Of a DNA stretch of 64,000 nucleotides, positions 63,411-63,517 are shown piece by piece; positions within the stretch are counted from its first letter, which is position 1; each line of letters begins with the position of its first letter. Source of the stretch: Bdellovibrionales bacterium (GTDB taxonomy: Bacteria; Bdellovibrionota; Bdellovibrionia; Bdellovibrionales; JAUICD01); assembly GCA_965203275.1 (NCBI GenBank), contig OZ241865.1, forward strand, positions 1,536,001-1,600,000. Direction: 5' to 3'. The position numbers were made by a program, and so were the translations under genes. Below the pieces are notes generated by a model, which had not been told where the DNA came from, made no database searches, and saw only the letters and a program-made list of their open reading frames with translations.

Positions 63411-63439
63411 TTGAGTTTATCCAAAGAGGATGAGATACT
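63411..63439 (+). promoter_or_regulatory. sigma70 promoter of crRNA-like unit 2
   Basis: TTGAGT-N17-GATACT, otherwise identical to 10778-10806. Confidence 0.65.
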
Positions 63440-63445
63440 ATAATT

Positions 63446-63517
63446 AATTTCTACTGTTGTAGATTAGATAATGGTAAGCTATAAAAAGAGGCCTTTCCTT
63501 GGTGGCCTCTTTTTTTT
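63446..63517 (+). ncRNA. Solitary Cas12a-type crRNA-like RNA, unit 2
   Basis: Exact canonical handle AATTTCTACTGTTGTAGAT (63446-63464), TAGATAATGGTAAGCTAT, then GAGGCC-N10-GGCCTC-T8. Confidence 0.8.

Follow-up and report, generated by a model that had tools for sequence, protein, structure and literature searches.

A solitary type V-A crRNA-like gene, one of about 18 dispersed units in a Bdellovibrionales chromosome, as a candidate decoy RNA for a Cas12a3-like nuclease

Why would a bacterial chromosome carry, outside any CRISPR array, a single perfect Cas12a handle with what looks like a promoter and a terminator of its own? We addressed this question for a locus, here called unit 2, close to the end of a 64-kb stretch of DNA (64,000 nucleotides, hereafter the window) from a Bdellovibrionales bacterium; a similar locus, unit 1, lies in the same window. 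An earlier note had reported that promoter and handle of the two units match at 52 of 54 bases, that the next 18 nt differ, and that identity resumes at a terminator stem with a different loop. All of this was confirmed: 63411-63464 and 10778-10831 are identical at 52/54 bases, the 18 nt after the unit 2 handle match their unit 1 counterpart at 6/18 positions, and both units end with the same stem around different loops. The surroundings were also as the note had described them, with a 76-aa ORF and a 17-aa ORF upstream and, downstream, a paralog of the gene neighbouring unit 1 (Table 1).

Table 1. Features of units 1 and 2 and of the unit 2 neighbourhood (positions in the window)
Feature	Position	Strand	Remarks
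Unit 1	10778..10877	+	promoter as in unit 2; one G-U wobble substitution in the handle; tail differs; terminator of the same family
Promoter and 76-aa basic ORF	63019..63325	+	promoter 63019-63047; ORF 63095-63325
17-aa ORF, 5' stub of HNH-like endonuclease gene	63328..63381	+	
Vestige, homologous to the membrane/coiled-coil gene before unit 1 (3' end with stop region)	63379..63410	+	
Unit 2, putative sigma70 promoter	63411..63445	+	prediction only
Unit 2, promoter boxes	-35 TTGAGT 63411-63416; -10 GATACT 63434-63439	+	17-nt spacer with extended -10 TG
Unit 2, type V-A crRNA handle, 19 nt	63446..63464	+	identical to array repeat end
Unit 2, tail in guide position, 18 nt	63465..63482	+	kin to tails at genome 264646/1412157
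Unit 2, intrinsic terminator	63483..63517	+	11-bp stem, 10-nt loop, U-run
Fragment with similarity to an ankyrin-repeat gene that adjoins the genome 960068 unit	63594..63833	-	
Start of 109-aa membrane-anchor/coiled-coil gene	63899..64000	+	extends past window end

The handle had been called perfect, and it is: without a mismatch, it equals the final 19 nt of the type V-A array repeat in this genome, and its subtype is that of the host CRISPR system. It lies outside any array, 1.35 Mb from the V-A array, and no second repeat was found beside the tail, which opens with a duplicate of the handle's last 5 nt. The predicted promoter has a 6-nt discriminator, with which transcription would start at base 1 of the handle. 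Generic scanners called neither the promoter (8/12 consensus bases, with a cut-off of 9) nor the terminator, whose loop exceeds the scanner's limit of 8 nt, and Rfam gave no matches within the 64-kb window. In the centroid fold, the handle hairpin and the terminator stem with its U-run both form (z = -2.7, 3/200 shuffles equal). Contigs from four public runs in three studies (one of the runs may be the source sample) show no differences from just inside the handle through tail and terminator, which excludes an assembly error as the source of the tail; no variation was seen in it. Among six public runs listed, no RNA run contained the locus, which does not bear on whether it is expressed. At the level of sequence, promoter geometry, handle and terminator together support unit 2 as a crRNA-like gene complete in itself.

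Unit 2 is not alone in this genome. The exact handle pattern occurs 14 times (six in the array and eight as solitary copies) compared to none for a reversed control, and hence the occurrences are not due to chance. A search that required the stem and allowed up to four mismatches returned 31 matches, six in the array and 25 elsewhere. Keeping those with at most two mismatches, or with the family promoter or terminator, gave 18 credible solitary units, all of them far from the V-A locus. The seven dropped were two overlapping matches at 138.7 kb and those at 491229, 708495, 929279, 958667 and 1877379; two of the seven are still included in the 20-unit sets that we used for promoter geometry and gene-neighbour counts. 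A third local unit has its handle at genome position 1600241, 241 nt outside the window, where it immediately follows the 109-aa gene. At genome 363994-364075, one unit carries a spacer-like tail unlike the others, followed by a degenerate second handle, a possible mini-array.

The elements around the handle recur as well. The unit 2 promoter alone, used as a query, found eight copies, seven with an intact handle and one disrupted, while the terminator alone found 14, ten with a handle upstream and four without. Sigma70 geometry aiming the start at the handle's first base scored at least 9.5, on our own scoring scheme, in 7/20 units including unit 2, compared to 0.3% of 20000 random positions; since the copies are related, the seven promoter-bearing units do not represent seven independent events. 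Remnants of a decayed array, with no conserved promoter or terminator in other copies, had been considered in the earlier note, but both elements proved to be conserved in other copies. Mean pairwise identity among the 18 units is 0.88 in the handle, 0.50 in the 19 nt upstream and 0.35 in the 19 nt downstream. The 25 handle changes fall in the loop (15), in G-C to G-U replacements (5) and in the first four bases (5). The invariant stem is no evidence of conservation, because the search required it; positions 12 and 19 of the handle, which the search left free, are invariant in 18/18. This distribution indicates that selection acts on the handle, where Cas12 binds, and not on the tail.

The tail is where a guide would reside, and the constant scaffold around it had been taken for a programmable guide cassette, with the caveat that the two tails may share one ancestor. 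The caveat was borne out and the programmable cassette was not: tails are related to one another, match no spacer and have no target. The unit 2 tail aligns with that of unit 264646, and the unit 1 tail with those at 1916923 and 1920928, with 0/300 shuffles as good in each case; between tails 1 and 2 there is no direct alignment (p 0.4). The terminator family of unit 2 also stands behind other units and behind handle-less paralogous genes, and the same tail-plus-terminator forms the 3' UTR of handle-less paralogous genes at 58786, 1762287, 2421410 and 2242323. In three units, the handle module stands before a complete family 3' UTR. These alignments indicate common descent of the tails, with each other and with the 3' UTR that occurs without a handle in a membrane/coiled-coil gene family; they are not acquired spacers. 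As for the direction of change, handles may have been inserted into the UTR or lost from it, and both fit.

Target searches agreed with the absence of a convincing target reported before, with nothing better than shuffles in the genome, no target in the cas promoters or the leader and nothing convincing nearby. Against 101 spacer entries (this genome plus two relatives), the tails gave only chance-level matches of 10-14 nt. For 16 non-redundant tails, no target with a TTN flank (a motif that serves as Cas12a PAM and, as reverse complement, also takes in the Cas12a3 flank) was better than those of 12 shuffles each. For unit 2, the TTN-anchored search, with and without G-U pairs, reached at best 14/18 (12/12 shuffles as good) and a seed run of 11 (3/12 shuffles as good), and a genome-wide PAM-free search covering 21 of 27 entries reached at best 15/18. 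In the cas12a/cas12a3 intergenic region, upstream of cas4, in the array leader and upstream of cas9, the longest run was 7 nt for any of the 16 units and 3-4 nt for unit 2. We rejected a local candidate target of unit 2, an 8-nt run within 2.5 kb: it lies inside the upstream coding sequence, was equalled by 1/20 shuffles and was one of 16 tests. We also rejected the sole viral match of the unit 2 tail, which is on the coding strand of a record unmatched by the V-A array and is about what chance would give (an estimate for an 18-base pattern). The host phage was not found with one spacer, and the viral collection that was searched is without this host's phages.

A CRISPR-regulated toxin-antitoxin module had been proposed from the neighbouring genes. 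The start of the 17-aa ORF nearly equals a sequence at genome 1507.2 kb that continues further, and this longer paralog can be aligned with the 105-aa HNH proteins of the genome (equalled by 0 and 6 of 1000 shuffles); for the stub by itself, the alignment is weak. As the 5' remnant of an HNH-like gene, the ORF was ruled out as a toxin candidate. The 76-aa ORF, an orphan, gave no usable ESM Atlas match, its promoter block is common to five other loci, and PADLOC returned nothing meaningful on the neighbour ORFs. The gene starting at 63899 shares 73% nucleotide identity with the gene beside unit 1; its 109-aa product gave only weak look-alikes, below 0.9, and has three close homologues. It belongs to a membrane/coiled-coil family of at least 64 members, eight with a handle directly behind and 56/64 without, so that its link to the units is real and not one-to-one. 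The module proposal thus failed on several counts: the 17-aa ORF is a stub, the downstream paralog has a unit of its own, most family genes lack a handle, and the module would require a DNA-binding Cas12a, which here is broken. The listing of units that the note had called for yielded the 18 described above. Of the neighbours whose consistency it had wanted tested, small toxic ORFs or pilin loci, the pilin genes showed no specific link, with 6/35 pilin-like matches within 5 kb of a unit.

Several of these neighbours are part of a repeat-rich genome. Members of the membrane/coiled-coil family lie at 10301-10762, 15027-15479, 28187-29240 and 63899-64000 in the window and in about 60 other places. 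The family is lineage-expanded and often tandem (nine genes at 209-212 kb), and its query found one weak match in the congener G001 and none in genomes G002 or G011. Type IV pilin genes sit in duplicated blocks (window 6156-6878 and 61648-62364; 35 pilin-like matches genome-wide), and a 500-nt block upstream of them is repeated about 20 times. A palindromic dispersed repeat of ~150-170 nt (window 61330-61530) has hundreds of genome copies. Three paralogous proteins of 350-400 aa (1177359-1178516, 1955891-1956967 and 2106514-2107578) have no Pfam or PHROG match; one follows a disrupted unit, and two tails find their best antisense match, which is not significant, in the start region of another.

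Pieces of mobile elements also lie near the units: within 5 kb of one we found 3/3 phage-type HNH genes, 3/3 primase pieces and 4/6 serine recombinases, with 6% expected by chance. Each count includes its own query, and since the queries came from unit neighbourhoods and the copies are related, this association is not independent evidence. The relics point to a decayed small integrative element as the probable carrier.

Which nuclease could such an RNA meet? The V-A locus (235-246 kb) retains cas2 and a six-spacer array, and both cas4 and cas1 are partial. Its Cas12a has 982 aa and aligns from about residue 330 of full-length proteins, the original N-terminal codons being stranded out of frame just upstream. 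Two Cas12a proteins from other assemblies begin at the same place, so the N-terminal loss is not peculiar to one assembly. The adjoining 1325-aa gene is unbroken and 50% identical to its counterpart in G001, and its sole solved relatives (PDB) are Cas12a3. We take it to contain the three RuvC motifs and the zinc ribbon. This leaves an RNA-triggered, Cas12a3-like nuclease as the only unbroken matching effector; a Cas12a4 placement may also fit. PMC12851939 describes Cas12a3 as RNA-triggered, cleaving tRNA tails and retaining crRNA-processing residues, and a preprint (bioRxiv 10.64898/2026.01.16.699850) gives a 19-nt handle, a ~23-nt spacer and the need for an A-rich flank.

A second CRISPR system, type II-B-like on our own reading, occupies genome 2266300-2278400, with a Cas9 gene in several pieces, a broken cas1 and 22 exact repeats kept. 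Spacer 1 of the V-A array (245323-245350) and a spacer of the II-B array (2266566-2266593) match at 26/28 bases on the same strand; an apparent self-target of the former turned out to be this spacer in a separate array. The match indicates that both systems sampled the same site of one invader.

We then looked at how far the dispersed pattern extends. The exact handle was present in 3/41 genomes, and the promoter-plus-handle pattern gave five matches here and none in 383 other genomes of the order. The congener G001, in which the Cas12a and Cas12a3-like genes are both full-length, showed no dispersed handle, only 59 array repeats and one more in a duplicated array end; G011 showed 16 array repeats and likewise no dispersed handle. 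In G001, PADLOC PDC-S29-like genes (L023:5361-5999 and L023:10866-11219) flank the Cas12a3-like gene, and none stands beside it here. A genome of another family in the order (G232) carries a 56% identical Cas12a3-like gene (2696733-2700092 on C2) plus a second fragment, and gave no matches when scored for the promoter-plus-handle pattern only. Of two metagenome scans, one had no matches and the other four, all ordinary arrays; GTDB scans for the promoter-handle junction gave none, in a collection that may leave out this very genome. In viral contigs, the -35/-10/handle geometry occurs at 12 loci of four sequence types, each with a single handle within 300 nt flanks and followed by a tail and a hairpin. 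Such solitary V-A handle genes on phages (L027:1485-1595, L064, L066 and L072) have consensus promoters as well as terminators and are candidate Racr or Cracr genes. The anatomy is a published one, and the dispersed pattern was seen in one genome only.

We consider the chances about even that unit 2 encodes a Racr-like decoy RNA, derived from a small mobile element and multiplied in the chromosome, that titrates the Cas12a3-like effector. From the features above we infer transcription, effector loading, inhibition and a mobile origin for unit 2. It would give rise to an RNA of roughly 70 nt that starts at a mature V-A crRNA handle, continues into a non-targeting tail and ends at its own terminator. 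This RNA would load into the Cas12a3-like nuclease, and formerly also into Cas12a, and would compete with the six array crRNAs, dampening type V immunity. The cassette probably arrived on a small integrative element composed of primase, membrane/coiled-coil gene, unit, HNH and serine recombinase, its copies multiplying with segmental duplications. Competition has precedent, being the mode of inhibition given for V-A Racrs (PMC10651486) and for non-targeting crRNAs (bioRxiv 10.1101/2024.10.29.618823). Several observations count against the decoy. The first base of the -10 box is non-consensus in units 1 and 2. In the minimum-energy fold, 0.2 kcal/mol below the centroid, the tail pairs with the handle instead. 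Decayed, disrupted and handle-less relatives of the units exist, and no intact mobile element was found around the units, with only the HNH-like stub beside unit 2. Of four sequence types from other assemblies, two have a full-length Cas12a3-like gene and two a split one, the latter on contigs with other indels where the splits may be sequencing error or decay. A decoy also leaves unexplained a host with an intact nuclease plus many inhibitors against that nuclease.

Other readings of the same locus have to be weighed against the decoy. It is rather unlikely, if by no means far-fetched, that unit 2 is a relic: a former anti-CRISPR RNA, now a silent or neutral copy spread by duplication in a repeat-rich genome, whose terminator ends the upstream mRNA. 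Its scrambled neighbourhood with HNH stub and ankyrin fragment fits this, as do the weakened -10 box, the handle-less and disrupted relatives among hundreds of other dispersed repeats, and the decay of Cas12a, cas1, cas4 and the Cas9 system; yet the unit 2 handle is perfect, handles are selectively kept across 18 copies with diverged flanks, and the locus is the same in three studies. We assign a low probability to an exapted RNA-level regulator, in which the RNA-loaded Cas12a3-like protein would bind host mRNAs by partial pairing and block translation without tRNA cleavage, for example across start codons of the membrane/coiled-coil family. The unit 1 tail does pair over the RBS and start codon of a gene subfamily, beating 500/500 unmatched controls, several tails carry an antisense start codon, and the effector was retained while Cas12a and the adaptation genes decayed. 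However, with 1448 RBS-matched starts the enrichment was almost gone (0-3 family genes in the top 20, with 0.73 expected), and the best matches were equalled by 7/40 (unit 1) and 16/40 (unit 2) shuffles, so we rejected start-codon antisense for unit 1; for unit 2 such a signal was never seen. The unit 1 site also lacks the A-rich flank that Cas12a3 needs, and the tails resemble 3' UTR remnants. Unlikely, in our view, is that the host has domesticated anti-CRISPR-like RNA genes and uses the nuclease for regulation at the RNA level: among the ~18 RNAs, some would guide it to membrane/coiled-coil family mRNAs or let it process them, so that it became indispensable after the loss of Cas12a and spacer acquisition. 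If true, no earlier case of regulation by an RNA-triggered Cas12 would precede it, and it would be a new kind of CRISPR exaptation.

There is a slim chance that the handle is a cis-acting processing site in the 3' UTR of the upstream mRNA, where the effector's pre-crRNA RNase would remove the terminator hairpin and destabilise the mRNA in a Cas12-dependent manner. Among 20 candidate handles, 11 have the stop codon of an ORF in the same orientation at most 130 nt away, and no intervening terminator was seen; handle modules do stand inside otherwise family-type 3' UTRs, and crRNA-processing residues are kept in Cas12a3 (PMC12851939). Against this, own promoters aim at the handle's first base, including in two units without a gene just upstream, and most family genes have no handle. 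A guide of the CreR, CreA or Cracr type, steering Cas12a to the promoter of cas genes or of a toxin, shares the handle-spacer-terminator anatomy reported for V-A CreR and CracrVA1, but these have ~10 contiguous PAM-flanked matches in the cas12a promoter, compared to 4 nt in the cas regions here and 8 nt within 2.5 kb, in coding sequence. With Cas12a lacking its first ~330 residues and no toxin partner identified, this very improbable reading is largely refuted. Hardly more credible is that unit 2 defends, as a single guide, against some unsampled phage: longer tails without kinship to the rest occur in a few units (e.g. genome 363994) and the viral collection contained none of the host's phages, but tails share homology among themselves and with UTR sequence, an 18-nt tail falls short of the mature spacer of ~23 nt, and the lone viral match of the unit 2 tail has the defects noted above. 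An 18-nt tail is further disfavoured as a defensive guide because the related Cas12a2 loses activity when its guide is shortened at the 3' end (PMC9849127).

If unit 2 and its relatives are indeed decoys, RNA anti-CRISPRs would extend to the RNA-triggered, dormancy-inducing Cas12a3 group, and about 18 units facing an array of six spacers could suffice to mute the system. The units would also form a natural panel of pre-matured promoter-handle-terminator cassettes that shows which handle positions are constrained. Among the open-access papers and preprint main texts that we searched, none describes dispersed chromosomal V-A units or a Racr for Cas12a3.

Comparison with known systems narrows the choice. 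A canonical crRNA or mini-array was rejected for unit 2, with no second repeat, tails related by descent and no convincing match to the 101 spacer entries. Viral Cracr and host CreR RNAs of type V-A (bioRxiv 10.1101/2024.10.29.618823 and 10.1101/2023.03.10.532045) likewise have a single pseudo-repeat, a ~20-nt spacer-like part and a rho-independent terminator; the units here differ in having no PAM-flanked match to a cas promoter, in not lying beside cas12a and in facing a broken Cas12a. The V-A Cracr makes 10 contiguous matches to the cas12a promoter (10.1101/2024.10.29.618823). We rejected CreR/Cracr membership, which takes about 10 or more such PAM-flanked matches and an intact Cas12a, as the locus has neither. 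With CreTA/CreA (described in 10.1101/2024.10.29.618823) unit 2 shares a crRNA-like RNA near small ORFs, but it has no toxin promoter match, no one-to-one gene pairing, an HNH-like stub as neighbour and a place outside the cas locus. CreTA membership was rejected too, as no adjacent toxin gene has a promoter matched by the unit 2 RNA.

The V-A single repeat units of Shmakov et al. (bioRxiv 10.1101/2023.03.03.530964) are closer in being standalone repeats without a conserved targeting pattern. However, those units lie inside cas loci, mostly upstream of cas12a, and in that study repeat-like sequences were depleted in intergenic regions elsewhere in genomes, whereas all 18 here are far from the locus. 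The 1325-aa effector resembles Cas12a3/Cas12a4 (PMC12851939) in sharing an array with a Cas12a and in having only Cas12a3 as solved relatives, from which it is distant (E 1e-71 and 2e-58). V-A Racrs (RacrVA1-3; Camara-Wilpert et al. 2023, PMC10651486) share with unit 2 a solitary V-A repeat-derived handle with its own promoter (here predicted), a subtype that fits the host cas locus and no need of a target; their mobile-element context may apply here as well, given the relics near several units. They differ in occurring once per phage or plasmid, compared to ~18 dispersed chromosomal copies with diverged tails here, where the sole unbroken cognate effector is RNA-triggered and Cas12a3-like and no acr gene was identified nearby. 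By analogy, the unit 2 RNA most likely works like a Racr and is a candidate member of that group.
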